25,865 nt of DNA, from positions 1-25,865 of IMG/VR virus record IMGVR_UViG_3300033516_000097; one strand, written 5' to 3'. The translations under genes and the position numbers were made by a program. Under the pieces are notes generated by a model. It saw nothing but the letters and a program-made list of their open reading frames with translations, ran no database searches and was not told where the DNA came from. Shown here piece after piece: positions 5,532-25,672 of the stretch (positions are counted from its first letter, which is position 1; every line of letters starts with the position of its first letter). This DNA comes from a virus. Taxonomy: Duplodnaviria; Caudoviricetes.

Positions 5532-6380
5532 TTACCAAAGAAATAGTTTTATGGGTTTAGAAATAGATTCAAATAGTGATTCGCTTGTTATTGTTTCATC
5601 CTTAATCATGATCCAATATATATCACTTTCAATCTTCATCTTTTCTGTCTTTTTAAAACCAATACTTTCAAAAAGAGCTATACTTGCTTCGTTATTTGGT
5701 TCAATATAAGCAAAACCTCTTTCTTTATCTTTAAAATATTCTTTAATAGCTTTACTTGCCAAACCTTTTTTTCTGTATTTTGGTAGAACATAAATTGCTC
5801 CTGTTCTGTAATAAAGTTTGTTATCCCAGGTTTTAGTTCTTGGGGTATAAAAACCAACAATCTTTCCATGATATGTGATAGGTGTTCTGTGCCATCCAAT
5901 GTCTCTATATATTGTGTCTTTTAAAAACTTATCATTGTTAGCTGCATCTAATATTTCTTTAGGTATTTCTTCGTATATCTTTATTAACTTCTTTAGTTCT
6001 TTAATGTCTTCTTGATCTTTAGGTCTATTGAGTTCTTCTTTTTGTTTCAATAACTCATTTAAAGAATAACAACAGACACCGTTAATTATAGTAGTTTCAA
6101 ATTTTCTAACAAGTCTGTGTAGGTCTATCTTATTATTATATTTTATTACCTCAGTATCTCCAAAATAGCTTAGGTTATATTTCTTTGTTTTTAAAAGTTT
6201 ATCGAAGAGTTCATTAGATATTGCCGCATCAATGTCGCTTGTTGTATCTCTTAAGCCATACATCAATAAAGCACCACCTGCACCTATAATAAATTCTTCT
6301 GGCTGTAGTTTAAAAGTTTTTAGAAATGAGTTATACTCAGCTATTATATCTGACTTTGTTAGTTTAGGTTTATCTTCCAT
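5532..6380 (-). CDS. Fusion of Pol-beta-superfamily nucleotidyltransferase and GNAT acetyltransferase
   Basis: N-half has GAGGALLMYGLRDTTSDID (GG-x-A...R-x-T-x-DID NTase motif) and RPKDQEDI. C-half has IYVLPKYRKKGLAS (GNAT motif A, acetyl-CoA loop) and NNEASIALFESIGF (motif B). Confidence 0.8.
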   Translation of the reverse strand: MEDKPKLTKSDIIAEYNSFLKTFKLQPEEFIIGAGGALLMYGLRDTTSDIDAAISNELFDKLLKTKKYNLSYFGDTEVIKYNNKIDLHRLVRKFETTIINGVCCYSLNELLKQKEELNRPKDQEDIKELKKLIKIYEEIPKEILDAANNDKFLKDTIYRDIGWHRTPITYHGKIVGFYTPRTKTWDNKLYYRTGAIYVLPKYRKKGLASKAIKEYFKDKERGFAYIEPNNEASIALFESIGFKKTEKMKIESDIYWIMIKDETITSESLFESISKPIKLFLW

Positions 6381-6471
6381 ATAGGTATCCTTTGTGGTTC
6401 AATCTATTAACAGTCTCTGAATTTTCTTTGATTAAGATTCACTACGTTCATCTTGTTCTCAAGAATCGGAG

Positions 6472-6561
6472 ATTCTTTTGGTTACATATATACTTCATGT
6501 AATCAACTACTGTTTGTTTTGCATCTAGTGTAGATGTAAGCAGTTGTTGTTAATAGGAGAT
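6472..6561 (+). promoter_or_regulatory. Conserved promoter plus structured 5' leader, copy 1 (likely early)
   Basis: 79/90 nt identical to 22674-22763. Contains TTCTTTT..TTACATATATA..TGTAA, a nested hairpin and an AGGAGA RBS. Confidence 0.8.
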
Positions 6562-8798: not shown

Positions 8799-8810
8799 GG
8801 AGTATTTGAC

Positions 8811-8846
8811 ATGGCAAAACTATTTGCACTTGAAGAAGAAGAATAA
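8811..8846 (+). pseudogene. Stranded duplicate 5' end (MAKLFALEEEE*) of the head gene that now starts at 10302
   Basis: 8811-8840 matches 10302-10331 at 29/30 nt, retains an AAGGAG RBS at 8797-8802 and stops after 11 codons. Confidence 0.8.
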
Positions 8847-8856
8847 TAAAAACCAT

Positions 8857-8909
8857 CTATAGAGAAATCTATAGTCAGAAGACTGTTATCTATAGATAAC
8901 AGTCTTCTG
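8857..8909. terminator. Tandem hairpins: 7-bp GAAA-tetraloop stem and 34-bp perfect palindrome
   Basis: CTATAGA-GAAA-TCTATAG (8857-8874), then CAGAAGACTGTTATCTA/TAGATAACAGTCTTCTG (8876-8909), abutting the stop of the minus-strand endonuclease at a convergent junction. Confidence 0.6.
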
Positions 8910-10277
8910 TTAATTATAACATTTTTTATATTTATCAATACTATTTTTAATTAATTCTTCAAATTGTTCTTTAGATAGTTCTTTAAGTTGTTTATAGTTG
9001 AACTCTAAATATCTATACTTAAACTGTATAGCGTTACTTCTAACCATATCATCTCTGTTCTTTTGAGATAAAAACCCATCTTCAGTTCTGTGAAAATATG
9101 GTATATATTCAAAGTGTTGTTTACCATGAAACTCTATCAGTATGTTGTAGTCTGGTAAGTAAAAGTCATAAGACAATCTATTAGCAACTTCTGGTATATT
9201 ATATTGCTGTATATGTTTTATATTATGATTTTCAAGTATAGCTTTTATAGCTAGCTCACCTTTGGAAGAACTACATATAGGACAACCATTCCCTCTTAAA
9301 TGGCTGTTAGGTTTTTGTTCAAATTCACCATGTACAGGGCATATAATAATGATTTTAGTATGATTATTAATATACTCAACTTTATTATAGTCATATTTGT
9401 TACCATGAATAGCTCTAGACTTAGCTATAAATTCCTCAGTTGTTAAAGCATAACTTTTCCCTCTTTTTTCTGAGGCACATTTAAAACAACCTTTTTCTTG
9501 TAAATGATGAACAGGAGATTGCAAAAATTCACCATGTACAGGACATATGATGATAACCTTAATCCAACTATTTATATATTTAACTTTATTATAATCATAC
9601 CTATCACCATGTATTGCTTTAGCTCTTATTAAAAATTCTTCTAAAGTTAATCTAGATTTATTATAAAAACATTCTCGACATCCAGATCCATCTAAATGTA
9701 CAAATGGTAATTGTTCAAACTCGCCGTGTATAGGACAGATAATAGTGACTTTGTCATGAGCACTTATATAAACAACTTTACTATAATCATATATATCACC
9801 ATGTATTTCCCTAGCTTTCTTTATCCATTCTTCTAATGTAAAGGTATATAATAAACTTTTTTCTTTATAACTACATTTAGGGCATATTTGGGGACGTAAG
9901 TGATGACTAGGTCTTTGTTCAAATTCACCGTGTATAGGGCATATGATAGTAACCTTAACTCTGTTATTAATATACACTACTTTACTATAATCGTATTTGT
10001 CACCATGAATAAGTCTAGCTTTAGCTATAAATTCTTCAGTGTTAGACTTACGATCAATACTTTGTTTATCATGATTACATTTAGGACAGCAACAACCTTT
10101 TAAGTGGTTATACGCTGCTTGTTCAAATTCACCGTGGATAGGGCATATAATAATAAGTTTAGAGTGCGAATGTACATATTCAGCTTTACTATAATCGTAC
10201 TTATTACCATGTATAAGTATTGCTCTTTTTATAAACTCTTCTTGAGAAATATTTTTTCTACCACATTTTTTGAACAA
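8910..10277 (-). CDS. Free-standing homing-endonuclease-like protein: 5 zinc-binding repeats plus Vsr/DUF559-like nuclease
   Basis: Five repeats of F-x-x-KA-x-x-HGxKYDYSK...CPIHGEFEQ-x4-HL-x-x-x-x-CxxC, then SKGE...YDFYLP...IEFHGKQH...RDD. TTG start after an AAAGGG RBS-like sequence. Confidence 0.8.
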   Translation of the reverse strand: MFKKCGRKNISQEEFIKRAILIHGNKYDYSKAEYVHSHSKLIIICPIHGEFEQAAYNHLKGCCCPKCNHDKQSIDRKSNTEEFIAKARLIHGDKYDYSKVVYINNRVKVTIICPIHGEFEQRPSHHLRPQICPKCSYKEKSLLYTFTLEEWIKKAREIHGDIYDYSKVVYISAHDKVTIICPIHGEFEQLPFVHLDGSGCRECFYNKSRLTLEEFLIRAKAIHGDRYDYNKVKYINSWIKVIIICPVHGEFLQSPVHHLQEKGCFKCASEKRGKSYALTTEEFIAKSRAIHGNKYDYNKVEYINNHTKIIIICPVHGEFEQKPNSHLRGNGCPICSSSKGELAIKAILENHNIKHIQQYNIPEVANRLSYDFYLPDYNILIEFHGKQHFEYIPYFHRTEDGFLSQKNRDDMVRSNAIQFKYRYLEFNYKQLKELSKEQFEELIKNSIDKYKKCYN

Positions 10278-10301
10278 TTTAACCCTTTCGAGATAATGAC
10301 T

Positions 10302-11738
10302 ATGACAAAACTATTTGCACTTGAAGAAGAAACAGATAATCTAGATAATTCCACAGTATTACTCATCGATAAGGTGTTAAACGATAGTAAGAAAGCCAAG
10401 ACTCCTTTGTCTTTAACAGCTGATTTAATTAAACAACGTAGCGAACTTAAATCAGAGATTACTACACAGCTTAAAGACTCTGGTGAAGAAGATGATTCTA
10501 ATAAACCTGATGACGAGGAAAAACCTAAAGAAGAAGAGAAAGAACCCTCTGACGATAAAGAGTCTGAAACTAAAGATGACAAACCTTCTGATAAAGAAGA
10601 AGATGAGTCTGATGATAAATCAGAAAAAGATTCTAAAGACGACAAAGATGAACTCTCTGAAGCTTCTGCTGACAAAGACTCTCTTAACGGTTTAATTGGT
10701 TCAGGACTAAAAGACTCTCCTAAAAAAGAAGAATCATCTCCTAAAGAAACTAAAGACGAGCCTGCTACTGAGTCACTCTCATACACCAAGTCTTTGAGTA
10801 ATATCTTTAGACCTATTCATGACCAATATAGTAAATACTTAGTTAGTCTTGAAGCTTACAATGTAGGCGATAAACTAGAGATTCAACAACAGCCTATTGT
10901 CTATGTCAAAGAAGCTGTTTTAGAATCTCTTAATAATTTAATTCAAACAGCTGATAAGTATATTGCTCACAACGAATCTTATATCAGTAGTGTATCCTCT
11001 TCTGTTAAAAAACTCAACGAAACCATCACAGTTTATAAACATTTTGTAGAAGCTAAAAAATTCCATTTCACTAATAAGTTAGTAGATAGTAAAGACATTC
11101 TCTCTAATCTATCTATTCCTGGTAACTCTGATCTTAGAACAACTGTCAAGTTACTCCTTGACTATATTGAGTCTTCTAGTAAAGTCATTAACTTAACACT
11201 AAGTAATGATTTTGAAAAGTTACAAGATGCTTACACTGCCTCTAAGTTTATCTTAGAGGGTGATGATTACACTTATACAAAAGTACTACCTGGCTTTAAC
11301 TTGATTAAAGTACATCTAGAGAACTATACTAATTACTTAAAAACCAATGCACAGAACTATCAGTATTATAAACTAAAGGTTTTAAAGACTGAAGACTTGT
11401 ATAACTTAAGCTCTATAGAGATCTCTAAAGACAATGATTTAGAGTTTGTTCTAGAGAATGCTGATAAGCTCTTTATCAATGTTGGACTGTATATTGATAA
11501 CTTGACGACTGTTACTGAGAACTTTAGAAAGTTTATTGATGAGATTAAAGTCATTATCTATAACGTAGAGAAAAACACTAACCAAGATTTGACTAAGATT
11601 GGTATAGATGATAAGCTAAAAGACTTTATTAAGTTCAAGCTTGTGATTGAGACATGCTATATTAACACAGATATAGTAATAGATTATGTGAGTAGCATTT
11701 TAAGTGTGCTCAATTTGTGCGTGGAATTAAAGCAGTAG
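10302..11738 (+). CDS. Inner head protein with long acidic propeptide (phiKZ gp92-like); start corrected from 10104
   Basis: MTKLFALEE start matches paralogous starts (alternative ATG at 10296). D/E/K-rich low-complexity region followed by ATE and SLE candidate cleavage sites. The upstream extension in the ORF track is antisense to the endonuclease. Confidence 0.7.
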   Translation: MTKLFALEEETDNLDNSTVLLIDKVLNDSKKAKTPLSLTADLIKQRSELKSEITTQLKDSGEEDDSNKPDDEEKPKEEEKEPSDDKESETKDDKPSDKEEDESDDKSEKDSKDDKDELSEASADKDSLNGLIGSGLKDSPKKEESSPKETKDEPATESLSYTKSLSNIFRPIHDQYSKYLVSLEAYNVGDKLEIQQQPIVYVKEAVLESLNNLIQTADKYIAHNESYISSVSSSVKKLNETITVYKHFVEAKKFHFTNKLVDSKDILSNLSIPGNSDLRTTVKLLLDYIESSSKVINLTLSNDFEKLQDAYTASKFILEGDDYTYTKVLPGFNLIKVHLENYTNYLKTNAQNYQYYKLKVLKTEDLYNLSSIEISKDNDLEFVLENADKLFINVGLYIDNLTTVTENFRKFIDEIKVIIYNVEKNTNQDLTKIGIDDKLKDFIKFKLVIETCYINTDIVIDYVSSILSVLNLCVELKQ

Positions 11739-11820
11739 AAATATTGCTAAGTGGTAAATAGTGTGATTTCGAGAGAGATCATACGTATGGTGTTTAACTT
11801 TTTTTTCTTGGAGTATTAAG

Positions 11821-13077
11821 ATGGCAAAACTATTTGCATTGGAAGAGATGGACGAATCTGGCGTTGAAATTGAACTAGAAACAACTCCTGAAGTTGGTGA
11901 AGTTGCTGACGTTCAAGTTGATATGGCTGAAGACATGGGTGGTGTTGAAGACCAATCAGAAGCTATCACTGAAGGTGTTGAGGCTGCTGACCAACTCGGT
12001 GAAGTCGAAGATGTAGTGGCTGCTGCTGCTGAAGGCGAAGGTCTTGATCCAGTAGCTGCTGAAGCTATCCGTATCGCTGTGGAAGCTATCTGCTCACGCA
12101 TCGGTGCTAATCCTAAGGCTATCTATAGCCTATACGCTACTGAGAATTTCCAATCAGCTTCTTCACGCAAGGCTAATTCCAAGATTGCTCTAGAAGGTGT
12201 TGGCGAATTCCTGAAAGATCTGTGGAAGAAGATTAAAGCTGCTCTGACTAATCTTTGGACTAAAGTCAAAGCTTTCTGGGACAAGCATTTTTCTTCACTA
12301 GGTCGTGCTAAGAATGCTCTTGAATCTGCAAAAGCTAAAATCGCTAAGTCTTCTGGTAAAATGACTAAACAGGGTTACATGGAAAAGGCTCCTAGCAGCC
12401 TAGCCTCTGCTTTCCCAGTTAAGGGTGATTTACTTCCTGGTACAGTTACTAAGTACATTGATGCTCACAATACTGCTGCTGGTACAGCTTCAGAAGTTAT
12501 TGATTCAGCTACTAAAGCTGCTGAAGCTGTTGCAACTTCAGCTAATAAAAAATCAGCTAAAGCAGATACTGCTACTGAAAATGCTGATCTCTCCGCTCAA
12601 CTTAGTAAATTTGCAGTTGATAAAGCACTAGGTTCAGAAGCTGCTCCTTTAGTTGGTGGTGTTTACATTAATTATTCACTCAAAGTTGAAGAAGGTGAAA
12701 TCAAGTTTGAAGCTGAACGTAATGTAGTTGAAAATCTTGAAGTTAGTGGTATGAAAGTTGCCACCAAACCTGAAGTTTCTGCTATGGTTAATTCAGTTCT
12801 TGGTCTCATTAACGGTGATATCAAAGCTAAATCTGATGCAGAGAAAACTGAAGCTTCATTCAAAAAGACCATGTCTGAGATTGAGAAAGCTGTTAACGCT
12901 AGCGTAACTGATTCAGCTACATCTGAAACTGCTAAAGGTCTTCGTAAAGATATCAAAAACGTGTACAAGTTATCTACTAAGACTGCAACTATTTCAGCTA
13001 CTCGGGTCTCTATGGATCTTAAACTAGTTGGTGGTGTTCTTGGTGTTGTTGGTGTATCACTTAAACATTTTGAATAA
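11821..13077 (+). CDS. phiKZ-like internal head protein (phiKZ_IP / gp93-family paralog)
   Basis: 418 aa; very acidic N-terminus ending ATE...ALE/GVGEFLKDLWKKIK, the family-type cleavage site plus amphipathic helix. Strong GCT/GAA/GGT codon bias suggests high expression. Confidence 0.8.
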   Translation: MAKLFALEEMDESGVEIELETTPEVGEVADVQVDMAEDMGGVEDQSEAITEGVEAADQLGEVEDVVAAAAEGEGLDPVAAEAIRIAVEAICSRIGANPKAIYSLYATENFQSASSRKANSKIALEGVGEFLKDLWKKIKAALTNLWTKVKAFWDKHFSSLGRAKNALESAKAKIAKSSGKMTKQGYMEKAPSSLASAFPVKGDLLPGTVTKYIDAHNTAAGTASEVIDSATKAAEAVATSANKKSAKADTATENADLSAQLSKFAVDKALGSEAAPLVGGVYINYSLKVEEGEIKFEAERNVVENLEVSGMKVATKPEVSAMVNSVLGLINGDIKAKSDAEKTEASFKKTMSEIEKAVNASVTDSATSETAKGLRKDIKNVYKLSTKTATISATRVSMDLKLVGGVLGVVGVSLKHFE

Positions 13078-13105
13078 TCTTACCTCACGGTAATTTACCT
13101 TAAGT

Positions 13106-13143
13106 AACAACCAAGAAGAGAATTAACTCTTCTTGGTTGTTTT
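13106..13143 (+). terminator. Intrinsic terminator
   Basis: 15-bp inverted repeat AACAACCAAGAAGAG (13106-13120) / CTCTTCTTGGTTGTT (13127-13141), T-rich tail. Confidence 0.75.
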
Positions 13144-13190
13144 ACTATTTTGTTGCAATTTTTTGAATATTTAAACCAAAGGTTACTGAA

Positions 13191-14633
13191 ATGAAATTAT
13201 ACTCTGAAAATAGACCTATACCTATTAGTTCACCTAAACCAGTCATAGCAATAGAAGACTTATCCATTGATAAAGAATGCTTAGCTTTAAATGAACATGT
13301 TAAAGCCTATAGAAGTCTAAACACTGTTCAAGAACAAGTATCCCTTGAATCATATAGCTTTATTGATAAACATAATTATGTTCTCTATAATGAATATATT
13401 AAAAGTATCACTAGTAACTTAGGTATTGCTCAGTTACCTATTATATCACAGGAAAATATACAAGAACTATCCACTGTTGTATTAAATCACCATATCTCTT
13501 TAGAAGGGTTTATTGCCACTATCTGGGAGAAGATCAAGAAGATCTTTAAAGGTATCTATGAGAAGATCAAAGGTTTCTTTGTTCGTTTTTTTACTAGACT
13601 TGGTAGACTCAAAGGAAAGCTAAAAAATCTAGATGAAGCACTATCTGGCACTAATAAAGATATTCAGAAAGTCAATTTAGATAAAGTGCCATCTGGTCTT
13701 GCTACTAAATATCCTTTAGCTGATAATCTGACTGGCTCAGATATCATCGAGGTCTTTAACAATGTAAATTCTCTTCAAGAACAAACAAAAGTAATAACAT
13801 CTAAAGCTAAAGAGTTTGCTGCTAAAGATGTATTAGATAAAAACTTTATCGAAGAAATTAAGAAACTTAAAGACTCAGCTAAAGCAGCTGGTGCTCAGAT
13901 AGATGGTAACAACCAGAATAAGAAATCTGGTATTGTGTTTAAAGAAGCTAAGTTTGGTGAAGATGGTAAAGCTAACAAAGAACTTGATAAGGAAAACAAA
14001 TCTTTAGCTCAAGTAGCTAAAGATTCTGAAGAAGAAGCTGACACCAAGACAGGAGAAGTAGATGCTGTTGTTGGTAAAAATACTGATGCTTTATCTAGTA
14101 ATGAAGATGTTCAGTTTCAAGCTGTACAAAAAGAACTAATTGATTTTAGTAAAACTGTCTCTGATGTATTAAATAAAGTCAAAGGTAAAAACCTTGTTGG
14201 TGGTATTGTATACACTAGCATCACAGTTGAGCAAGATGGTAATCTTAAAATTGAAGATGAAAAAAAGGATGTAAAACCATCTAGTATCTCTTTAACTGAA
14301 AGAGCTGTTTTAAGCAAACTTGTCAAAGATACTATCAAAGTTGTAGAGAATGCTGAAAAAGATCTTAATGTATATGGTACTGTCAATGACTCTATCATGA
14401 AGAATACAGAGATTGTAGATAAGCTTATTGCTGATCTAGATAAGATGGGTGATGATCCTTCTTTTAGTAAATACAAAACAGTGTTGTCTAATAAAGTTAA
14501 AGTGCGCTTAGGTTTACTTAAGACTTTCTTTAGTGAATATAACAAGGTTGGTAATACTATGTTTGGTATGGTGTTGGATACTGCTGATGGAAATGTCGCA
14601 TATGCCACGCTGTGCTTAAAATTCTTCAATTGA
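13191..14633 (+). CDS. phiKZ-like internal head protein paralog
   Basis: 480 aa; AIE, SLE and SQE sites, then SLE/GFIATIWEKIKKIF. Shares LVGG motif and C-terminal LKxF with the 418-aa paralog. Confidence 0.75.
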   Translation: MKLYSENRPIPISSPKPVIAIEDLSIDKECLALNEHVKAYRSLNTVQEQVSLESYSFIDKHNYVLYNEYIKSITSNLGIAQLPIISQENIQELSTVVLNHHISLEGFIATIWEKIKKIFKGIYEKIKGFFVRFFTRLGRLKGKLKNLDEALSGTNKDIQKVNLDKVPSGLATKYPLADNLTGSDIIEVFNNVNSLQEQTKVITSKAKEFAAKDVLDKNFIEEIKKLKDSAKAAGAQIDGNNQNKKSGIVFKEAKFGEDGKANKELDKENKSLAQVAKDSEEEADTKTGEVDAVVGKNTDALSSNEDVQFQAVQKELIDFSKTVSDVLNKVKGKNLVGGIVYTSITVEQDGNLKIEDEKKDVKPSSISLTERAVLSKLVKDTIKVVENAEKDLNVYGTVNDSIMKNTEIVDKLIADLDKMGDDPSFSKYKTVLSNKVKVRLGLLKTFFSEYNKVGNTMFGMVLDTADGNVAYATLCLKFFN

Positions 14634-15577
14634 CATAATTTAGTTGCTATGTTAACCAATGAAAAATTCATAGAAAGAGCTATAAAAGTCCATGGTAATA
14701 AATATGATTATTCTAAGGTAGATTATACTGGTAACGCTAATAAAGTTATTATTATATGTAAAGTCCACGGTGAATTCTATCAAAAACCAAATCATCATTG
14801 GGATGGTAATGGGTGTCCTGAATGTATGGGTCTTAAACGTTATAGTAACCAAGAATTTATAATTAAAGCTAAAGCTATTCACAATAATTTTTATGATTAT
14901 TCAAAAACAAGATATATAAATAGTTACACACCAGTGACAGTTATTTGTCCTAATCATGGTGAATTTTACCCCCAGCCAGCTACACATCTTTTAAAACGTG
15001 GGTGTATGAAATGTTTTTATGATAGAATAGCTAACACCACTGATAAGTTCATAAAAAAGGCTAGAGAAGTTCATGGTGATAAATACAACTATAGTAAAGT
15101 AGTGTATATTAATAGGACCACTAAAGTAGTTATCATATGTCCCATTCATGGTGAGTTTAAACAATCACCACGTGACCATATACAAGGCACTGGTTGTCCA
15201 ATATGTAGTTCATCTAAAGGTGAGTTAGCCATCAAAGCTATATTGGATAAACGCAGTATAAAGTATATACAACAGTACAAAATACCTGAAGTTGCTAATA
15301 GATTTTCTTATGATTTTTATTTACCTGAGTACAACTTACTTATAGAGTTTCATGGCGGTCAACACTACAAATATATACCATTTTTTCACAGAAACGGTGA
15401 AGATGACTTTTTAAAGCAAAAGAACAGAGATGATATGGTAAGAAGTAACGCTAGGCAATTTAAGTATAGATATTTAGAGTTCAACTACAAACAGTTAAAG
15501 GTTGGTATTTTGGAGAAAATAATAACAGATAAACTTAAAATTGTATGAATTTGTTGTGCTTAAAGTACTTTGGTTAA
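14611..15577 (+). mobile_element. Endonuclease element E2 flanked by a duplicated host-gene 3' end
   Basis: TGTGCTTAAA at 14611-14620 and 15555-15564. Left copy reads LCLKFFN*; right copy (15554-15577) reads LCLKYFG*. Confidence 0.65.
14649..15548 (+). CDS. Homing-endonuclease-like protein: 3 zinc-binding repeats plus Vsr/DUF559-like nuclease
   Basis: Three HGxKYDYSK...CxxHGEF...CxxC repeats; C-domain SKGELAIKAIL...YDFYLP...IEFHGGQH is nearly identical to the other three copies. Confidence 0.8.
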   Translation: MLTNEKFIERAIKVHGNKYDYSKVDYTGNANKVIIICKVHGEFYQKPNHHWDGNGCPECMGLKRYSNQEFIIKAKAIHNNFYDYSKTRYINSYTPVTVICPNHGEFYPQPATHLLKRGCMKCFYDRIANTTDKFIKKAREVHGDKYNYSKVVYINRTTKVVIICPIHGEFKQSPRDHIQGTGCPICSSSKGELAIKAILDKRSIKYIQQYKIPEVANRFSYDFYLPEYNLLIEFHGGQHYKYIPFFHRNGEDDFLKQKNRDDMVRSNARQFKYRYLEFNYKQLKVGILEKIITDKLKIV

Positions 15578-15589
15578 TAGGAGATTAAT

Positions 15590-17170
15590 ATGTCTAAGCT
15601 TTTTTCTTTTGAAGACGATACGGCTGATTATGGTTATGCGAGAGTAGAAGCTACTCCTGAGAGTCAACTCGAAGAAGACTCTAACGATATAGCTGAACTT
15701 GTTAACGAGTATAGTAATGACTTGTCAATGGTCACAGAAGGCTTTAAAACAGCTTCTGGTGAGTTAAAATTAGTGACTGATATGAAGTGTAGTCTTGAGA
15801 GTAAAAAGCTCTCTAGCGTCGATTATTTCACATCTGTAGAAAACTATAGTTTAACGATGAGACACATAGCTGATAACCTTGGTGTGAAGCTTAGAGTACC
15901 TTCGTTGGAAGACTTTAAGAACCCTCATGGAAGTAAAGCTTCACACGCTATTGCTATTGAAGGTTTCTATGAATTTATTAAGAAGATCTGGGAAAAGATC
16001 AAAGACTTCTTTGGTAGTTTCTTTAAGAAGATAGCTTTGTTCTTTAAACGACTCGTTAATGCTGATCTTGACTTAAAGACCTATGAAGAGTATGTCGATG
16101 ACATGGTACATTCACTAAGAAAGAAAGACGCCACTCTTAAAGACAACACTAAACTTGAGTCTAAATTACCAGCGCTTCTTGCCGATGAAGGTATGAATAG
16201 TATTGATAACAACTATGTAATGAGTTTAGGTCTTAAGAAGATTAACACTCTTAGTGATGTTAGTGATAACTTGTTTAAAAATTTACCTATACTCACTAAG
16301 AAAGTAAGAGACGCAATCTCTGAAATAAAAAAGGCAGATGGTGTGATAGTCAGGAAAACTTTAAATGAAGTTAAAACTTCTTTAGAGAGTTCATTTACAG
16401 ATTTGTTTAAATACAGGTTTGAACTAAACGAGTTACCAGACCTTACATACGACCGTGTAGTTAGTTCATTTTCAGAAGAGCTTAGTGATAAATCTAAAGA
16501 AATGCTTTTACAGTCTTATACAAACCCAAGAGATAAATATGAAGTTTTACCTAAAAACTTTAACATGTACTTAGTGTTGTCTCGTTCTAGTAAACTGATA
16601 CTGTTTGCTTCTAGTCAAAGAAACACTTATACACAAAATACGTTAGAGCCAGTTTCTAATCTTAATAACATGCTAATGTTGTTTGATGAATATAAGAAGT
16701 TTTCTAAAAAAACTGATATAAGTAAATTTGGTTCTATTATATCTAAATCACAAAAAGATATCGATGAATGTATCGATATTGCTTCAAAAAGCTTTAAAGA
16801 TGTTTTAGAAAGTGTAAGTAAAGGCGTAGCAACTGAAGCGGATAATTCCTTACCAGGCGAAGAAGATCCTGGATACAATATAAGAAATTCATTTCAAACT
16901 GGAAGTACTCCTTTTAATCGTTTTACTGAGATACCAGATCTTCCATTGTACGAAGAGCCTTCTAACGGATCACAGTCAAATGAACCAGATAAACCTGTAG
17001 TTAACGAAAAGTTGAAAAAAGAAGTAGAGGACACACAACGTTATATCCTTAACGTTATGTACAGTCTACAAGTCTTGCTTAGAGAACTCTCCACTAACCT
17101 TGCTGGTACTATCGTAGAAACTCGTTTTGAGCTTATTAAGTACCTTTATAACTCATGTCGCAGATTTTAG
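15590..17170 (+). CDS. phiKZ-like internal head protein paralog
   Basis: 526 aa; MSKLFSFED start, acidic propeptide with SLE/SVE sites, then AIE/GFYEFIKKIWEKIK. AGGAGA RBS. Confidence 0.75.
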   Translation: MSKLFSFEDDTADYGYARVEATPESQLEEDSNDIAELVNEYSNDLSMVTEGFKTASGELKLVTDMKCSLESKKLSSVDYFTSVENYSLTMRHIADNLGVKLRVPSLEDFKNPHGSKASHAIAIEGFYEFIKKIWEKIKDFFGSFFKKIALFFKRLVNADLDLKTYEEYVDDMVHSLRKKDATLKDNTKLESKLPALLADEGMNSIDNNYVMSLGLKKINTLSDVSDNLFKNLPILTKKVRDAISEIKKADGVIVRKTLNEVKTSLESSFTDLFKYRFELNELPDLTYDRVVSSFSEELSDKSKEMLLQSYTNPRDKYEVLPKNFNMYLVLSRSSKLILFASSQRNTYTQNTLEPVSNLNNMLMLFDEYKKFSKKTDISKFGSIISKSQKDIDECIDIASKSFKDVLESVSKGVATEADNSLPGEEDPGYNIRNSFQTGSTPFNRFTEIPDLPLYEEPSNGSQSNEPDKPVVNEKLKKEVEDTQRYILNVMYSLQVLLRELSTNLAGTIVETRFELIKYLYNSCRRF

Positions 17171-18584
17171 TCCAGTAATTGTTTGATTTATCAAACTTTT
17201 ATCATTATATGCCTAAAAAATCAAGTAAAGAAGAATTCATAGCTAGAGCTAAAAAAATACACAATGATAGATACGACTACAGTAAAGTGGTATATGTAGG
17301 TACTCATATTAAAATAATCATTATATGTCCTATACATGGTGAGTTTGAACAAAGACCATCAGCTCACTTACAAGGATGTGGTTGTTGTAAATGTGGTTTT
17401 ATAAACATGGCAAGTTTTAATAGACTTACATTAGAAGAGTTTATTAAAAGATCAATAATAGTACACGGTTATAAATATGACTATTCTCAATCTGTTTATA
17501 TAAAAGCTAATAAAAAAATAAAAATTATATGCCCTGTACATGGTAGTTTTTATCAAGTTGCTATAGATCACATTGGTGGACATGGATGTTCTAAGTGTGG
17601 TTCTATATCAACTGGTAATTTAATTAAAAGTAATATTAAAGAATTCATAGAAAAAGCTAAAGAGGTTCATGGTGATAAATATGACTATAGTGAAGTAGTG
17701 TATGTAAATAGCTATGATAAAGTTATAATTACTTGTAAAGAACATGGTGATTTTAATCAAAGTCCTAATAACCATTTAGGTGGTGCAGGTTGTCCAATAT
17801 GTAAAGGAATAGCGTGTAGTAAATTATTACTATCAAATAAAGAAGAATTTATCAATAAAGCTAGACTTATACATGGCAATAAGTACGACTACCGTAAAGT
17901 AGTTTATATAAACAGTTGGACTAAAGTCGTCATAATCTGCCCTATACACGGTGAGTTTGAACAAAAACCTTTGTCTCATTTAAATAGACATTGTTGTATT
18001 AAGTGTGGAATAGATAATAATATAATTAAACGATCTTCAACCACAGAAGAATTCATAACTAAAGCTCGACTTATTCATGGTGATAAATACGACTATAATA
18101 AAGTCGGGTATAAAAATAATAAATCTAGAATTATTATAATATGCCCTATACATGGAGAGTTTGAACAAGCAGCTAATGCTCATTTAAGTAATCAAGGTTG
18201 TCCTTTATGTAAATCATCTAAAGGTGAACTAGCTATAAAAGCTATACTAGATAAACATAACATACAACATGTTCAAGAGTATCGTTTACCAGAAGTTGTT
18301 AATAGGTTGTTATATGATTTTTACTTACCAGACTATAAGTTGCTTATAGAGTTTCATGGTAGACAACACTATGAATATATTCCATTCTTTCATCGTAATG
18401 GTAAAGATGACCTACTTAAGCAAAAGAATCGTGATGATTTGGTCCGACACAATGCTAGGTATTTTAAATACAGGTACATAGAGTTTAACTATAAACAACT
18501 TAAACATATGACTAAAGAAGAGTTTGAGAATTTATTTTTACGAAAAATAAATACCTTTATAACTCATGTCGCAGATATAGCTAA
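17141..18584 (+). mobile_element. Endonuclease element E3 flanked by a 25-bp exact direct repeat
   Basis: TACCTTTATAACTCATGTCGCAGAT at 17141-17165 and 18552-18576. Left copy reads YLYNSCRRF*; right copy reads YLYNSCRRYS* and is followed by a terminator. Confidence 0.8.
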
Positions 18585-18591
18585 GCGTTAA
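17179..18591 (+). CDS. Homing-endonuclease-like protein: 5 zinc-binding repeats plus Vsr/DUF559-like nuclease
   Basis: Five repeats plus IEFHGRQH nuclease domain. The true start may be the ATG at 17209 (MPKKSSKEEF). Confidence 0.8.
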   Translation: MFDLSNFYHYMPKKSSKEEFIARAKKIHNDRYDYSKVVYVGTHIKIIIICPIHGEFEQRPSAHLQGCGCCKCGFINMASFNRLTLEEFIKRSIIVHGYKYDYSQSVYIKANKKIKIICPVHGSFYQVAIDHIGGHGCSKCGSISTGNLIKSNIKEFIEKAKEVHGDKYDYSEVVYVNSYDKVIITCKEHGDFNQSPNNHLGGAGCPICKGIACSKLLLSNKEEFINKARLIHGNKYDYRKVVYINSWTKVVIICPIHGEFEQKPLSHLNRHCCIKCGIDNNIIKRSSTTEEFITKARLIHGDKYDYNKVGYKNNKSRIIIICPIHGEFEQAANAHLSNQGCPLCKSSKGELAIKAILDKHNIQHVQEYRLPEVVNRLLYDFYLPDYKLLIEFHGRQHYEYIPFFHRNGKDDLLKQKNRDDLVRHNARYFKYRYIEFNYKQLKHMTKEEFENLFLRKINTFITHVADIAKR

Positions 18592-18595
18592 CACA

Positions 18596-18637
18596 ATACC
18601 ACCCTAAGTAGTTTTTCTACTTAGGGTGGTATGTTTT
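18596..18637 (+). terminator. Intrinsic terminator
   Basis: 16-bp inverted repeat ATACCACCCTAAGTAG (18596-18611) / CTACTTAGGGTGGTAT (18617-18632), followed by GTTTT. Confidence 0.75.
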
Positions 18638-18662
18638 GATGCATTTTTCAAAAGGAGTTGTC

Positions 18663-20450
18663 ATGCCAGTTATCAGTTTAACACTAGATGAAACTAACAG
18701 AAGTATATTCTCTAGTGTTTATTTTAAGATCATCGAAGATATTGTCACTGCTATTAAAGTGCCTCACAGCTCTCTTGTCGTTGTTCATAAAGACACAGAG
18801 ACAACACTGACTGATAATAAAAGTAATGCTACAGGACTACAACAGGACAACTTACCTTCTACTATTTCTAAGCGTAAAGTCATAGCCACTATCACCGAGA
18901 ACTATAATGAGGATACATTAACAACTACCGCTGTTCATCAACTAGATAATTACCCTATTTTCATTGACCACGATATAGACGTAGTTGTTTATCCTATTTA
19001 TGTTAAAAGTGATATCGATATAGAATTTAATTATACAACGTCTTCTAAAGCAGAAGCCAATAGGGTTAGAGATGATTTAAGGATACGTCTATCTCAAACC
19101 AGAAATATCACGATGCATGATATCGAGTATGATATCATTATTCCTGAAGTGGTAGAAGACTTCATTACTGAAGTGCATACACTTAAAAATAGACTAGTTC
19201 CACAAAGTTTAGAAGATTACTTTAGGGATAATAGCACTAAAAGAATTCACCTCTTAACTGATATGGCTAATACAAGTAATGCTCGTTTAGCTATCAATGA
19301 GAAACAGGTAAGAATAGTTGGTTTATTTGATTTTTCTTCTATGCCTGAAAAACTTGACATTGATAATGATAACAATAACTATAAGGTTAGTTTTACTTAT
19401 AAGATGTCTTTTGATGTTCCAAGAGCTATGGCTATTAGATATCCTGTTATGATATGTAATAGAACTCTTCCTTCTAAATACATTCAATTTATAGCGGATA
19501 ACAAAACTAATTCTCAACAAGAGTATAAAAGAGAATTAGGGTACACTAACTCTCTTGGAGCACTATCGCACTTTGAAGCACATAGACAATTAGAAAACAG
19601 AGTGGATGTCAATCTTCCTATTAACATTCCTTTGTTTGATGATTTTAACACTAGAGTAGGACATAAAGGTTATGGTATCATTACTTCATTTTTAACTGAT
19701 GTTAACGAGACTGATAAGAAAACTTTATTTAATTTAAGAGAATTAGATCCCTACTATATACAAGAAGATGTATTGAATTTTATTTTAAATGGCGAGAAAC
19801 GATATATTGTTAATCCTTTCATGTCATTTTTTTATTTTGGTTTATACCAAGATGGAAGACATTACGATAATAACATACTTGAAATAGATGATAATTTAAA
19901 CATTAAATCTAAAGTAGAACTTTCTTTATTTAAACCTGTAAGAGTTACTCTTAGTATTATTTTAGATATCACTGCTTTAGATTCAGGTGCTATAGATAGA
20001 TTACTTCTTAACCTAAATGTTTTATATATTTTTCTTAGTGAGTATATAAGAGCTTATAATAACTTTAAAACTGAAAACTCAACCAGTGTTATACCTGATG
20101 CTACATTTAATATGATATTTGTTAAGTTGTTAAATTCACTTATGTTAGTAGATAACCTTATTGGCATCAAAGGTGTTTTAGATGTTTTAAGAGATGACAA
20201 GTATATATTTAATGGTTTATTAGGAACATTGGAAGTTAGCTATCCAAATATGTTAAGATATTTAATGACTAATAATGTACCTACTACCGTAGTCAGTAAA
20301 ATAGACGGAACAAACTATAATGTATTAAGACCTCTAGTGAGTGATTTAGATATGTCATTAAGCACTAAGAAAGTAAATTACGGTGAAGAAATAAACATCA
20401 TGAAAACTGTTATGACTCATTATATAGTTGCTTTAAGAATGCAGCATTAA
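18663..20450 (+). CDS. Virion structural protein, possible tail terminator/neck protein (phiKZ gp98-like); start corrected to 18663
   Basis: AAGGAG RBS 5 nt before ATG 18663 gives 595 aa. PIYVKSDIDIEFNYTTSSKAEANRVRDDL resembles the T4 gp15-like beta-strand/helix motif. Function is an inference. Confidence 0.55.
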   Translation: MPVISLTLDETNRSIFSSVYFKIIEDIVTAIKVPHSSLVVVHKDTETTLTDNKSNATGLQQDNLPSTISKRKVIATITENYNEDTLTTTAVHQLDNYPIFIDHDIDVVVYPIYVKSDIDIEFNYTTSSKAEANRVRDDLRIRLSQTRNITMHDIEYDIIIPEVVEDFITEVHTLKNRLVPQSLEDYFRDNSTKRIHLLTDMANTSNARLAINEKQVRIVGLFDFSSMPEKLDIDNDNNNYKVSFTYKMSFDVPRAMAIRYPVMICNRTLPSKYIQFIADNKTNSQQEYKRELGYTNSLGALSHFEAHRQLENRVDVNLPINIPLFDDFNTRVGHKGYGIITSFLTDVNETDKKTLFNLRELDPYYIQEDVLNFILNGEKRYIVNPFMSFFYFGLYQDGRHYDNNILEIDDNLNIKSKVELSLFKPVRVTLSIILDITALDSGAIDRLLLNLNVLYIFLSEYIRAYNNFKTENSTSVIPDATFNMIFVKLLNSLMLVDNLIGIKGVLDVLRDDKYIFNGLLGTLEVSYPNMLRYLMTNNVPTTVVSKIDGTNYNVLRPLVSDLDMSLSTKKVNYGEEINIMKTVMTHYIVALRMQH

Positions 20451-20456
20451 CAGTTG

Positions 20457-20496
20457 TTCCAGATACAGCATTACAGCTGTATCTGGAATTTCTTTT
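20457..20496 (+). terminator. Intrinsic terminator
   Basis: 13-bp inverted repeat TTCCAGATACAGC (20457-20469) / GCTGTATCTGGAA (20476-20488), then TTTCTTTT. Confidence 0.75.
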
Positions 20497-20520
20497 CAAT
20501 TACATATATAATACATGTAA
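20490..20520 (+). promoter_or_regulatory. Third copy of the promoter core (no hairpin leader) upstream of the ligase
   Basis: TTCTTTTCAATTACATATATAATACATGTAA matches the TTCTTTT..TTACATATATA-n5-TGTAA core at 6473 and 22675. Confidence 0.65.
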
Positions 20521-22668
<2,148 letters not shown>

Positions 22669-22673
22669 CTGAA

Positions 22674-22763
22674 ATTCTTTTGGTTACATATATATTAGTT
22701 GTAAGTAGCTACTGTTTGTTTTACATCTACTGTAGATGTAAGCAGTGGCTGTTAATAGGAGAT
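22674..22763 (+). promoter_or_regulatory. Conserved promoter plus structured 5' leader, copy 2
   Basis: 79/90 nt identical to 6472-6561; inner stem TTACATCTA/TAGATGTAA, outer stem AGCTACTG/CAGTGGCT. Confidence 0.8.
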
Positions 22764-22770
22764 AGTTATT

Positions 22771-23073
22771 ATGGCTAAGACTAATGGTATTGTTGTGAAT
22801 GTTACCGCAAAAAAAGAAAAAGTTGCTAAGAACTTAGTGAGTGTACAAACATCACTAAGTTTTGCTTTTGATGTCCTTGACGCTTTAAACAAGGATGGTA
22901 TTTTCGATCAAGAGGATAACGCTGGACTTTACGGGATTTATGCTCAGGGCAACACTGGGTATGTAAAAGTACCTGCCTGGGTTTCACTGGTACATCTCCA
23001 AACTCTCGAAACAGAAGTTGAGTTATCTGTCGAGATTGGGGATGAAGAAACAAAGATCAGTTTTGTACTTTAA
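22771..23073 (+). CDS. Hypothetical protein (likely early gene)
   Basis: 100-aa ORF with AGGAGA RBS, its own promoter/leader and terminator; no motif recognised. Confidence 0.75.
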   Translation: MAKTNGIVVNVTAKKEKVAKNLVSVQTSLSFAFDVLDALNKDGIFDQEDNAGLYGIYAQGNTGYVKVPAWVSLVHLQTLETEVELSVEIGDEETKISFVL

Positions 23074-23083
23074 AAACTAACTC

Positions 23084-23121
23084 AAAGAAAAGGCCTAACC
23101 GCCTTTTCTTTTTTCTTTTTT
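23084..23121 (+). terminator. Intrinsic terminator
   Basis: AAAGAAAAGGC-CTAACC-GCCTTTTCTTT followed by a long T-tract. Confidence 0.85.
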
Positions 23122-23155
23122 AAAATTCTGTGAAGCTTTACAAAAGGAACGTTCT

Positions 23156-24529
23156 ATGGCTATCGTTAAATTACAACCAGATCAATCACCACCTATAGTA
23201 GTTAACACTCCAGAAACAATACAGGAGCCAAGTAAGTCTATTTTCACTTCACTGGTTCCTGAATCAACTATTATTTCACTTCTTAAGTACACAGAAGGTT
23301 ACCCATGGAGTATTAATTATTACGGTCAACTTCTCAACGTTAATAACACACTAGAGAACTTTGATCCAACAACACCTAATCTAACACAACCATATTACTG
23401 TGTATCTGATATGGTTATACAAGTCTCTTCTCCTCTTAATAGTAACTATGACGCTAATACAGGAGTTACTTCAGTTAACGGTGTAGCGGTAATGCCATAT
23501 AAGATAACGCCTAACGTAGGTGATGTCTTTATAGCTAAAGTAGATAACGGTGAAGATGCTATCTTTATTATAACAACTGTTTCAAGAAAAACTTACAGAA
23601 AAGACACTCTGTATGAAGTCTCTTACAATTTATACGCTTACACTTCAGCCAACCCAACTTTTATTCCAATCTTAGAGCAAAGAGTTCAAGACACTTATTT
23701 CTTTAACAAAGACACTGATTTCTTTAACAGAGATGTTCTTATTAAACCAAGTGTTAAAGAAGCTACTGATAGACTTAATGTATTTTTAAGAGAGTCGCAA
23801 GAGCACTATTTTGCCATCTTTGCTCAAAAAGAAATAGGTGGTATCACTATACCTGGTATGGGTAATACTGTTTACGACCCACTTCTTATTAGTTTTATTA
23901 GTAAGACTGTTGACTACAACACTCTTGTAGATATTCCGTTTTATAAGTTCAGTCATAGCAACAATAGATATATAGAGCAAAAGAGTATGTTTGATGTGTT
24001 ACTAACTAGAAGCACGTCTCTTCTTTCGACGATCAATAAAACTTATAACTTTGTTCCTACTAGTAGTATACCTAATAAAGCAAGACTAGGTACTTTATGG
24101 CACACTGGTGTAGAGTATGTATTATTTCCTATGAATCCTAATAAGGATATGGAAATTACTGACATGACTTTAACGGCAACAGATATGCCAGTTATACCTC
24201 AATTAAAGAATTCTAAAAATTACAGTATGCCTGTTCCTCCTATCACCATTCAAACAAAGAACAACAATGAACTCTTTACTAAGCCTCTTTTACATGAACT
24301 ATTCGTTAATGACTCCTACGTTGTGTCTAATAACTTCTATAACTATTTAACAGATAATACTACATATGAAAGTATAAGTTACATTGAGTTTTTGATCTAT
24401 AAGTTTATCAACAGAGAAGCTATTGCTAAAGAGGATTTGTGTGTAGCTCTTGAAAGCTATACTAGTTGGTCACTTATGCATAAGCTTTATATTTTGCCTT
24501 TGCTTTGGCAGCTTGTGGTTAATTGCTAA
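23156..24529 (+). CDS. Virion structural protein, possible neck/head-tail adaptor (phiKZ gp99-like)
   Basis: 457 aa with AAGGAA RBS. PNVGDVFIA...AIFIITTV resembles the P-x-x-GD...F-x-I-x-x-V motif of T4 gp14-like head-closure proteins. Function is an inference. Confidence 0.55.
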   Translation: MAIVKLQPDQSPPIVVNTPETIQEPSKSIFTSLVPESTIISLLKYTEGYPWSINYYGQLLNVNNTLENFDPTTPNLTQPYYCVSDMVIQVSSPLNSNYDANTGVTSVNGVAVMPYKITPNVGDVFIAKVDNGEDAIFIITTVSRKTYRKDTLYEVSYNLYAYTSANPTFIPILEQRVQDTYFFNKDTDFFNRDVLIKPSVKEATDRLNVFLRESQEHYFAIFAQKEIGGITIPGMGNTVYDPLLISFISKTVDYNTLVDIPFYKFSHSNNRYIEQKSMFDVLLTRSTSLLSTINKTYNFVPTSSIPNKARLGTLWHTGVEYVLFPMNPNKDMEITDMTLTATDMPVIPQLKNSKNYSMPVPPITIQTKNNNELFTKPLLHELFVNDSYVVSNNFYNYLTDNTTYESISYIEFLIYKFINREAIAKEDLCVALESYTSWSLMHKLYILPLLWQLVVNC

Positions 24530-24559
24530 ATTATATGAGAACTTTATATAGGTGATAAA

Positions 24560-25672
24560 TTGGTAACACAAGAAGAATTTATAAATAGAGCGATTGAAAT
24601 TCATGGTAATAAATATGATTATAGTAAAACGAAATTTAATGGATTCTTAAGAAAAATAAAAATAAACTGTAAAGTTCACGGAGAATTTGAACAATATCCA
24701 CAACACCATTTGAGAGGAAGTGGTTGTAGTTACTGTGTTAATATGGTTAGATTGACTAATCAACAATTCATAGATAAAGCTAAATCTGTTCATGGTGATA
24801 AATATAGTTATTTTAAAACTGAATTTAAAGCACTTAAAATGAATATAACTATAACATGTCCTATTCATGGTGACTTTGAACAAAGATCAGATGTACATAT
24901 AAATGGATCTGGTTGTCACGATTGTTTTAGTGACAGTAGAAAAAGTAATATGATTGAATTTATAGAAAAAGCTAGAGAAGTACATGGTGACAAATATGAT
25001 TATAGTAAAATCAACTATATAAATAAAGAAACCAAGATAATTATAATCTGCCCTGTTCATGGTAGTTTTCAACAACGACCTGGTTCTCATTTATCTGGAT
25101 CTGGTTGCAATAAATGCGGAGAAGATAGAACAAGATTACTACAAGACGAATTTATCACTAAAGCTAAATTAGTACATAATAATAGGTACAATTATGACAA
25201 AGTTAATTATATAAATACTAAGACTAGTGTCACTATTATATGTCCAATTCATGGTGAGTTTGAACAAATACCTAATAGACACTTAGCTGGAGCTGGGTGT
25301 TTTATTTGTAAAGCGTCTAAAGGTGAACTAGCTATAAAAGCTATACTAGATAAACACAACATAGAACATGTACAAGAATATCGTATACCTGAAGTTATAG
25401 CTAGACTTTCTTATGATTTTTACATTCCGAAATATAGTCTACTTATAGAATTTCATGGCAAACAACACTATGAATATATACCACATTTTCACTATAATGA
25501 TGAAGATAATTTTTTAAAGCAAAAGAACAGAGATGACATGATTAGAAGTAATGCTAGTCAGTTTAAATATAGATACTTAGAGTTTAACTACAAACAACTT
25601 AAACACATGAGTAAAGATGAGTTTGAAGAGTTAGTAATAAATAAAATTAATTTATTTAAAAAGAAAGGTTAA
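24560..25672 (+). CDS. Homing-endonuclease-like protein (element E4): 4 zinc-binding repeats plus Vsr/DUF559-like nuclease
   Basis: TTG start after AGGTGA RBS; four repeats plus IEFHGKQH domain. A 41-nt exact match to E3 (25316-25356 vs 18217-18257). Confidence 0.8.
   Translation: MVTQEEFINRAIEIHGNKYDYSKTKFNGFLRKIKINCKVHGEFEQYPQHHLRGSGCSYCVNMVRLTNQQFIDKAKSVHGDKYSYFKTEFKALKMNITITCPIHGDFEQRSDVHINGSGCHDCFSDSRKSNMIEFIEKAREVHGDKYDYSKINYINKETKIIIICPVHGSFQQRPGSHLSGSGCNKCGEDRTRLLQDEFITKAKLVHNNRYNYDKVNYINTKTSVTIICPIHGEFEQIPNRHLAGAGCFICKASKGELAIKAILDKHNIEHVQEYRIPEVIARLSYDFYIPKYSLLIEFHGKQHYEYIPHFHYNDEDNFLKQKNRDDMIRSNASQFKYRYLEFNYKQLKHMSKDEFEELVINKINLFKKKG

Follow-up and report, generated by a model that had tools for sequence, protein, structure and literature searches.

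We describe here a family of free-standing nuclease genes in the virion module of a tailed phage (Duplodnaviria; Caudoviricetes) that probably home in the manner of the yeast WHO elements and would bring a replacement gene end with them. The window analysed is a stretch of 25,865 nucleotides, positions 1 to 25,865 of the IMG/VR record IMGVR_UViG_3300033516_000097. It holds tail tube, internal head and head-tail joining genes of a phiKZ-like jumbo phage, and these phiKZ-like virion genes are the only phage-family markers recognised in the window. The nearest isolate, vB_BspM_AgentSmith (AgentSmith), is syntenic at 26-63% amino-acid identity and is without nucleases across the matching stretch. 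A scan of viral contigs for close relatives with the single proteins 15590 and 23156 found no locus.

Four nuclease genes at the boundaries of virion genes

Four open reading frames (ORFs), named E1 to E4, encode paralogous nucleases with 56-62% pairwise amino-acid identity. Each stands at a boundary of phiKZ-like virion genes, as an earlier note made from the sequence of the window had claimed, and the host gene is whole at each of these unrelated termini. In the following, the gene end that belongs to the complete gene is called the working copy and the second copy beyond the nuclease the stranded copy.

E1 site, start of gene 10302
8799..8846, + strand: stranded start copy of gene 10302; its ribosome-binding site (RBS) overlaps the stop of the upstream gene, followed by ATG at 8811, 11 codons and a stop
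8876..8909, no strand: perfect 15-bp hairpin adjoining the E1 stop, likely a terminator
8910..10277, - strand: E1 nuclease, 455 aa, predicted to carry five DUF723/CapR-type zinc repeats and a Vsr/EDxHD-like domain, antisense to the operon
10290..10331, + strand: working start of gene 10302 with a weak RBS, 24 bp from the E1 start, holding the second repeat copy
10302..11738, + strand: gene 10302, 478 aa, orthologue of AgentSmith gene 31 (44%)

E2 site, end of gene 13191
13191..14633, + strand: gene 13191, phiKZ-like internal head protein, working end at 14610-14633
14649..15548, + strand: E2 nuclease, 299 aa, three zinc repeats, predicted fold nearest I-Bth0305I and Vsr
15554..15577, + strand: stranded end copy of gene 13191, comprising its final 7 codons and the stop; the RBS of the next gene comes after it

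E3 site, end of gene 15590
15590..17170, + strand: gene 15590, phiKZ-like internal head protein, working end at 17138-17170
17179..18591, + strand: E3 nuclease, 470 aa, five zinc repeats; its final codons share sequence, in another frame, with the stranded gene end
18549..18584, + strand: stranded end copy of gene 15590, comprising its final 11 codons and the stop, exact over 18552-18576
18596..18632, + strand: terminator-like hairpin behind the stranded end; in empty relatives the hairpin directly follows the gene stop

E4 site, end of gene 23156
24490..24529, + strand: last 13 codons of the head-tail joining gene 23156, unalignable to the E4-empty allele, which has 47 other letters there
24560..25672, + strand: E4 nuclease, 370 aa, four zinc repeats, second gene end undetected

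The earlier note had bracketed three of the nucleases by direct repeats of 26, 10 and 25 bp. At E1, positions 8815-8840 recur exactly at 10306-10331 (26 bp), and at E3, positions 17141-17165 recur at 18552-18576 (25 bp). Both lie beyond all of 400 random pairs of flank-sized windows, none of which reached 25. The 10-bp repeat at E2 (14611-14620 and 15555-15564) has a length that 60 of the 400 pairs reached, yet it sits inside the 7-codon copy of the gene 13191 end with its own stop. At E4, neither nucleotide repeat scoring nor the peptide test detected a repeat. A decayed start remnant left of E4 (13/21 bases, chosen by eye) failed the peptide test and is uncounted.

Among the matches listed, no piece bridges 8840-8880, and the left joint of E1 is given by the window assembly alone. 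The right joint of E1 recurs in other contigs, as do the joints of E2, E3 and E4. E1 inserts a hairpin into the operon (8846-8910) and leaves gene 10302 with a weak RBS near the divergent E1 start (10277-10302). The stranded start at 8811 shares 18 exact bases with the start of the paralogous gene 11821.

A family of zinc-repeat nucleases with a Vsr-like fold

E1 to E4 share a C-terminal domain and carry zinc-type repeats (DUF723, DUF4379, CapR), five each in E1 and E3, three in E2 and four in E4. An AlphaFold2 (AF2) model of E2 built from 59 homologues has a predicted local distance difference test (pLDDT) score of 93.5; an earlier model from a shallow alignment, with pLDDT 55.6, was left out of the structure search. 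Ranks 1-4 of the Foldseek search are held by 3r3p (E 8e-4, template modelling (TM) score 0.73-0.77 by target length), 1vsr and 1cw0, which makes the catalytic domain of I-Bth0305I and Vsr the nearest structures of the model. A search of PDB by sequence found no nuclease. The putative active-site residues E192, D222, E233, G236, H239 and D261 are invariant across the 59 homologues, their assignment being made without residue-by-residue superposition on 3r3p. Phage records annotated as 'Hef-like' match the family at 38-39%. We conclude that the family consists of zinc-repeat nucleases with a predicted Vsr/EDxHD homing-endonuclease fold and putative cleavage activity.

The earlier note had recognised no transposase, recombinase, reverse transcriptase, terminal inverted repeat or intron core in these elements, and the searches agree with it. 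E1 to E4 have no Rfam match at the gathering threshold, no terminal inverted repeat longer than 7 nt and no shared element ends, and domain searches found no transposase, recombinase or reverse transcriptase domain in them. Its further proposal of a transposon-like spread within one genome finds no such agreement. Ten paralogues are 64-83% identical in their best segments, with no near-identical copies among them. Because this identity is no higher, there are no recent intragenomic copies, and the spread to new genes is old as judged from the sequences. The tree leaves most relations within the clade of the window open; duplication in one lineage and separate arrivals are therefore indistinguishable. 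G005, a related phage genome that is 94% complete, has no member of the nuclease family, and fragments of sister phages carry 7 and about 10.

Second copies of gene ends recur beside the nucleases

Scans with the C-terminal domain yielded clade members on other contigs (numbered with L), and 18 elements with both flanks were retained. L082, L089, L095 and L161-L164 were dropped as duplicates, L090, L092, L096, L097 and L100 for a missing flank, and L085 represents E4. L082 is the same region in another assembly, with small drop-outs and frameshifts relative to the window that are likely sequencing errors.

The flanking duplication is found in part of these paralogues. A second copy of the neighbour's terminus is present in 12 of the 18 elements, at nine starts and three ends, and the other six have none. 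Ten of the 18 came up when the working terminus served as query (empirical p up to 0.06, with about 2 expected by chance); the second copies of L166 and L244 were found only with the native start of a relative as query, a post hoc test. The length of the copy varies from about 6 to 25 codons. The stranded copy retains the native promoter motif, RBS, gene overlap or terminator, and the working copy adjoins the nuclease.

The two copies differ mostly at silent sites. Eight ungapped pairs were pooled, leaving out L099 (gapped) and L086, L165 and L166 (no codon-level counts). Their differences are distributed over codon positions 1/2/3 as 16/13/32 (p 0.0016), and 24 of 42 differing codons are synonymous against an expected fraction of 0.21. 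In a simulation of neutral decay, a copy retains as many residues with P 0.0001 at L083 and 0.0015 at L091, and in 0 of 20,000 runs at L088. For E1, E2 (P 0.07), E3, L087 and L244 the signal is not significant singly, the copies differing at 1 of 27 nt at E1 and at 2 of 30 nt at E3. At E2, three of the five differing codons of the stranded end are synonymous, and its terminal Phe-Gly-stop is common to all four empty alleles. Since the differences are mostly silent, both copies appear to have evolved as coding sequence, that is, as alleles from different genomes. The stranded copy is nearer the element-free allele in eight of ten cases, with distant relatives as reference. At E1, the first 10 residues of the stranded start score nearer to G005 than those of the working start.

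The same layout is found beyond the clade, in 6 of 97 distant family members from unrelated phages. The peptide test gave 14 matches among the 97, of which seven were set aside as likely tails of neighbouring nucleases and one, L203, is uncounted. Six is a lower bound, because the same automatic test caught only 3 of 17 clade elements as a result of mis-picked starts. Nucleotide-level repeat scoring placed 5 of 16 elements at 18 or more, against a null maximum of 18, and misses recoded copies.

A 405-aa ORF in L087 (6109-7326) and a matching reverse-strand start in L089 (upstream of 347) resemble what we take to be a TnpB-type element of the IS200/605 group. In L089, the start of this reverse-strand ORF occupies the place that the stranded gene start has in L088.

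Empty alleles coexist with occupied ones

Contigs from X2-X4, runs from three studies, are empty at two sites. At E1, 8802 is joined to 10301 with 6 other letters, and at E2, 14627 is joined to 15585 with 14 other letters. X2-X4 probably represent one strain, because their difference counts agree. One X1 contig is empty at E4, with 24489 joined to 25675 through 47 other letters. Run X1 may be the one that the window itself came from. Close-strain empty alleles are thus available at three of the four sites, each with a single gene end, and at E1, E2 and E4 occupied and empty alleles coexist in one population. AgentSmith and the relatives G001 and G005 are empty at all four sites. E3 is empty solely in these distant relatives; it is at least partly present in X2, X3 and L082, and among the joints listed there is no close empty allele. 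The expectation of the earlier note that empty sites hold exactly one copy of the repeat stands as far as the single gene end is concerned. It does not extend to the sequence, where the joint letters of the close empty strains, which alone were compared, match neither gene-end copy fully. We also considered that the E1-empty allele arose by precise loss through recombination between the repeats and rejected this, its spacer matching neither copy.

The E4-empty X1 contig carries a different allele, with 27 differences in patches over the 6,140 bases before E4. Outright difference is confined to the last 40 bases of gene 23156, and its last 13 codons are likely a foreign end brought with E4. At 12306-14627, upstream of E2, the 3' half of gene 11821 is unalignable between co-occurring strains, and gene 13191 differs by 13-15% from the E2-empty strain; elsewhere the divergence is 1-2%.

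Probable homing with a replacement gene end and its alternatives

WHO elements offer a model that matches this layout. After their nuclease has cut a sensitive allele, repair uses the gene body and the stranded fragment of the donor as homology arms, and the end of the recipient becomes the new fragment (PMC7282813; this and the papers cited below are represented by the parts available to us). By analogy, we consider it likely that the free-standing zinc-repeat/Vsr-like nucleases of the phage home like these yeast elements and bring a replacement gene end. The nuclease would cut the empty allele of the neighbouring gene within its first or last 6-25 codons, likely near the inner edge of the repeat, and its recognition site would be long enough to be broken in both copies. 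The nuclease gene would then arrive with the version of the gene end that belongs to it and is predicted to resist cutting; the repair arms would be the gene body on one side and the stranded fragment and flank of the donor on the other. The invaded genome's own end would be left stranded on the far side of the element. A tract that spans the entire end would leave no second copy, and E4 and L094 look like such full replacements.

Each round of homing would refresh the stranded copy with the end of the recipient. L091 and L244, which come from two distant phages and share one insertion site, form a group with 96/97 support. Their stranded starts are of similar extent; over 7 codons, 6 silent third-position changes and 1 residue separate them, which matches the prediction of repeated refreshing and suggests that each phage stranded its own start.

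The earlier note explained the repeats differently. Every insertion would duplicate its target, for example by staggered cutting and fill-in or by microhomology repair, and the element would spread through the genome like a transposon; repair by way of a long repeat is a further route to such a duplication. Exact matches of 26 bp at E1 and 25 bp at E3 speak for this, as does the working copy at E2 and E3, which loses its likeness 1-2 codons before the stop as if clipped. Precedents exist in restriction genes, including a lone HNH gene, mcrA (PMC2853133), and in WHO10, which duplicated the host 3' end in two of its five insertions (PMC7282813). As a general account of the repeats it is nevertheless quite unlikely. 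Against it stand the silent-biased divergence, a stranded copy that is nearer to empty relatives in eight of ten cases, the variable lengths, the six of 18 elements without a second copy and the moderate identity of the paralogues. The related I-Bth0305I leaves 2-base overhangs (PMC3239194). The exactness at E1 needs no duplication, given the 18 bases that are also exact in the start of gene 11821, and at L003 the 41 of 42 identical bases lie inside a longer, diverged pair of ends.

For the founding of a site, target duplication is still the likeliest explanation. No foreign end can arrive with the initial event at a site, which must therefore be either an exact duplication or a one-sided repair. 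In the weakest part of our reading, a new site would arise only rarely, once the specificity of the zinc repeats has changed, through an insertion that may duplicate the target exactly. The exact repeat at E3 may be such a founding event and is the best candidate; E1 appears to be a weaker one, because its first 18 bases are also exact in gene 11821. It is a tentative and rather unlikely extension that the family founds new sites itself, with shuffling among 3-7 zinc modules retargeting the nuclease, exact duplication at the cut (E3, E1) creating the first stranded fragment, and WHO-type homing following.

Homing could also be one-sided each time, the gene-body end being repaired by homology and the other end by microhomology beyond the nuclease, with no prior stranded fragment. 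This yields the same two-allele layout and would account both for the differing lengths and for how a stranded copy first arose next to an intergenic nuclease gene; in T4 intron homing, one-sided events with joints at microhomologies have been described (PMC2988022). We regard it as distinctly improbable, in that the L091 and L244 stranded starts, similar in extent in two distant phages, suit a reusable second arm. Nuclease-independent mosaicism, in which illegitimate recombination between related phages carries the nucleases as passengers with the adjacent gene, is very improbable. Head genes are indeed mosaic between strains regardless of the elements, as the 3' half of gene 11821 and the patchy differences show, but stranded ends repeatedly adjoin family members, at 12 sites and also in unrelated phages, the active-site residues are invariant, and the foreign tract at E4 is limited to the adjoining 40 bases. 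The chance that the elements are introns is practically negligible. The strong RBS on the stranded E1-side copy would fit a spliced E1 that joins the strong upstream start to gene 10302, and a joint inside the repeat would bring the reading frame back. Group I introns require a preceding U and a terminal G; within the exact repeat both positions are the same base. The lack of an Rfam match argues in the same direction, and E2, E3 and E4 stand behind complete genes, for which splicing is unneeded.

Several observations weigh against WHO-like homing. The silent-site signal comes from paralogues and is significant for no element within the window, and the codon blocks were chosen by eye for peptide likeness, with the simulation as the sole control for this choice. 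The blind peptide test has a p floor of 0.029 with two tries per element, so that about 2 of 18 matches are expected by chance. At E3 and L087, the exceptions among the ten comparisons, the working copy is nearer to the G005 allele. The E2 stranded end with its spacer and the E1 spacer are not identical to the close empty alleles, and the X2-X4 strains are therefore not the direct recipients. Left of E4 there is no long co-conversion gradient, the differences being patchy. All 18 clade elements examined stand singly, without the tandem clusters seen at yeast FBA1. In another phage, the E4 site holds a family nuclease (L096, near 450) that falls apart from E4 in the tree; either a separate occupation of the site or an exchange of domains is possible there.

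Neighbouring genes

One conserved N-terminal motif is common to the starts of three head-region paralogues, genes 10302, 11821 and 15590; it may serve as a signal for packaging or processing. Two virion genes that are neighbours in AgentSmith are separated in the window (20542-23073) by an NAD-dependent DNA ligase and a 100-aa gene. The gene at 5532-6380 (- strand) fuses a nucleotidyltransferase-like N-terminal part (DUF6036, weak) to a GNAT acetyltransferase. A 93-base module of promoter and ribosome site, 87% identical between 6469-6561 and 22671-22763, precedes two small accessory genes, 6566 and 22771. An AT-rich core of 9 bases within this module recurs upstream of several nucleases and host genes in relatives and is likely a phage promoter. 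A scan for sigma-70 promoters stayed at chance level (81 vs 82).

Comparison with known systems

The earlier note did not recognise the phenomenon as described. Outside phages, the layout is covered in published work (PMC7282813, PMC3630166, PMC2853133). The WHO elements of Torulaspora and Lachancea share with the phage family a nuclease between a working allelic end and a stranded recipient fragment without splicing (PMC7282813; bioRxiv 10.64898/2026.08.13.744650), coexisting occupied and empty alleles and a zinc-binding part. WHO10 reached five new loci, two of them with a duplicated host end, by a mechanism that is unclear (PMC7282813). In the parts of these papers available, WHO nucleases are LAGLIDADG/intein-derived, reside mostly at FBA1, replace about 400 bases of the 3' end and form tandem clusters. 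In contrast, the phage nucleases are of the Vsr/EDxHD type and stand singly, in either orientation, at a dozen different genes, where 6-25 codons are concerned and starts make up 9 of 12. No LAGLIDADG or HO-related domain was found in the phage family, and its predicted fold is Vsr-like. By this analogy, the family probably works like WHO elements and is not a member of the WHO family.

Fungal mitochondrial mORFs (Allomyces atp6; Glomus atp6, atp9, cox2 and nad3) also fuse a foreign end to the gene and displace the native end, which is nearer to an uninvaded relative. They occur at several genes per genome and sometimes replace the end fully, with Glomus atp9 resembling E4 and L094. As far as the accessible text goes, they differ by LAGLIDADG and GIY-YIG nucleases, by being limited to C-termini, by longer fragments and by their mitochondrial location (PMC3630166). 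Partial gene duplications beside free fungal nucleases have been noted as well (PMC7487136).

On the side of the protein, phage Hef nucleases belong with I-Bth0305I in the EDxHD/Vsr-like family, and the predicted catalytic fold and residues of the phage family resemble this type (PMC3239194). The repeated CapR/DUF723 zinc modules resemble those of the phage homing nucleases of PMC10448857. I-Bth0305I, however, is intron-encoded with NUMOD2 (PMC3239194), the CapR-repeat nucleases carry T5orf172 (PMC10448857), and the parts of both papers available do not mention duplicated gene ends. The seg and mob genes of T4 likewise place many nucleases at unrelated gene boundaries of one phage, with 12 free-standing ones in T4 (PMC2988022), and E4 resembles the MobA cassette, in which a diverged homologous stretch replaces 55-75 deleted bases (bioRxiv 10.1101/2022.08.31.505936). 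They belong to other nuclease families with cut sites hundreds to thousands of bases away, and a stranded end is not described in the portions available. PMC12908238, in its available part, treats only intron-encoded nucleases in nucleus-forming phages.

Restriction-modification insertions with long target duplication come closest to the model of the earlier note and to E1 and E3. They have no mobility genes, long variable repeats across a start or stop, and an intact target (Furuta et al. 2010, PMC2853133). They differ in that they lie in bacterial chromosomes and that both of their repeats closely match the empty target (43-47 of 46-47 bases in the rows seen), where most pairs of the phage family are recoded alleles. 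The two copies at E1, like those at E3, are near-identical to each other, and those at E2, L083, L088 and L091 are clearly not. The family shows none of the marks of DNA transposons or insertion sequences that were considered, namely transposase, terminal inverted repeats, duplications of fixed length or near-identical copies.

A full-text literature search, with incomplete coverage of subscription journals and supplements, found no description of the layout in phages. A 2026 preprint, in the part available, ranks end-replacing homing as a third category beside introns and inteins and calls it 'considerably more rare'. If our reading of WHO-like homing is true, it would be common in phages, termini of virion proteins would be swapped between lineages by selfish genes, and annotators will mis-pick starts. 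If the family also founds its own sites, it would represent a retargetable, splicing-free homing element, common in phages, that replaces both starts and ends of virion genes. With narrow predicted cut sites (25-75 bases) and paralogues that vary in their zinc modules (3-7), the gain of new homing sites becomes testable on one family. The end-replacing layout is known outside phages; what is added here is one phage family with a dozen genes, starts as well as ends, both orientations and co-occurring empty alleles.

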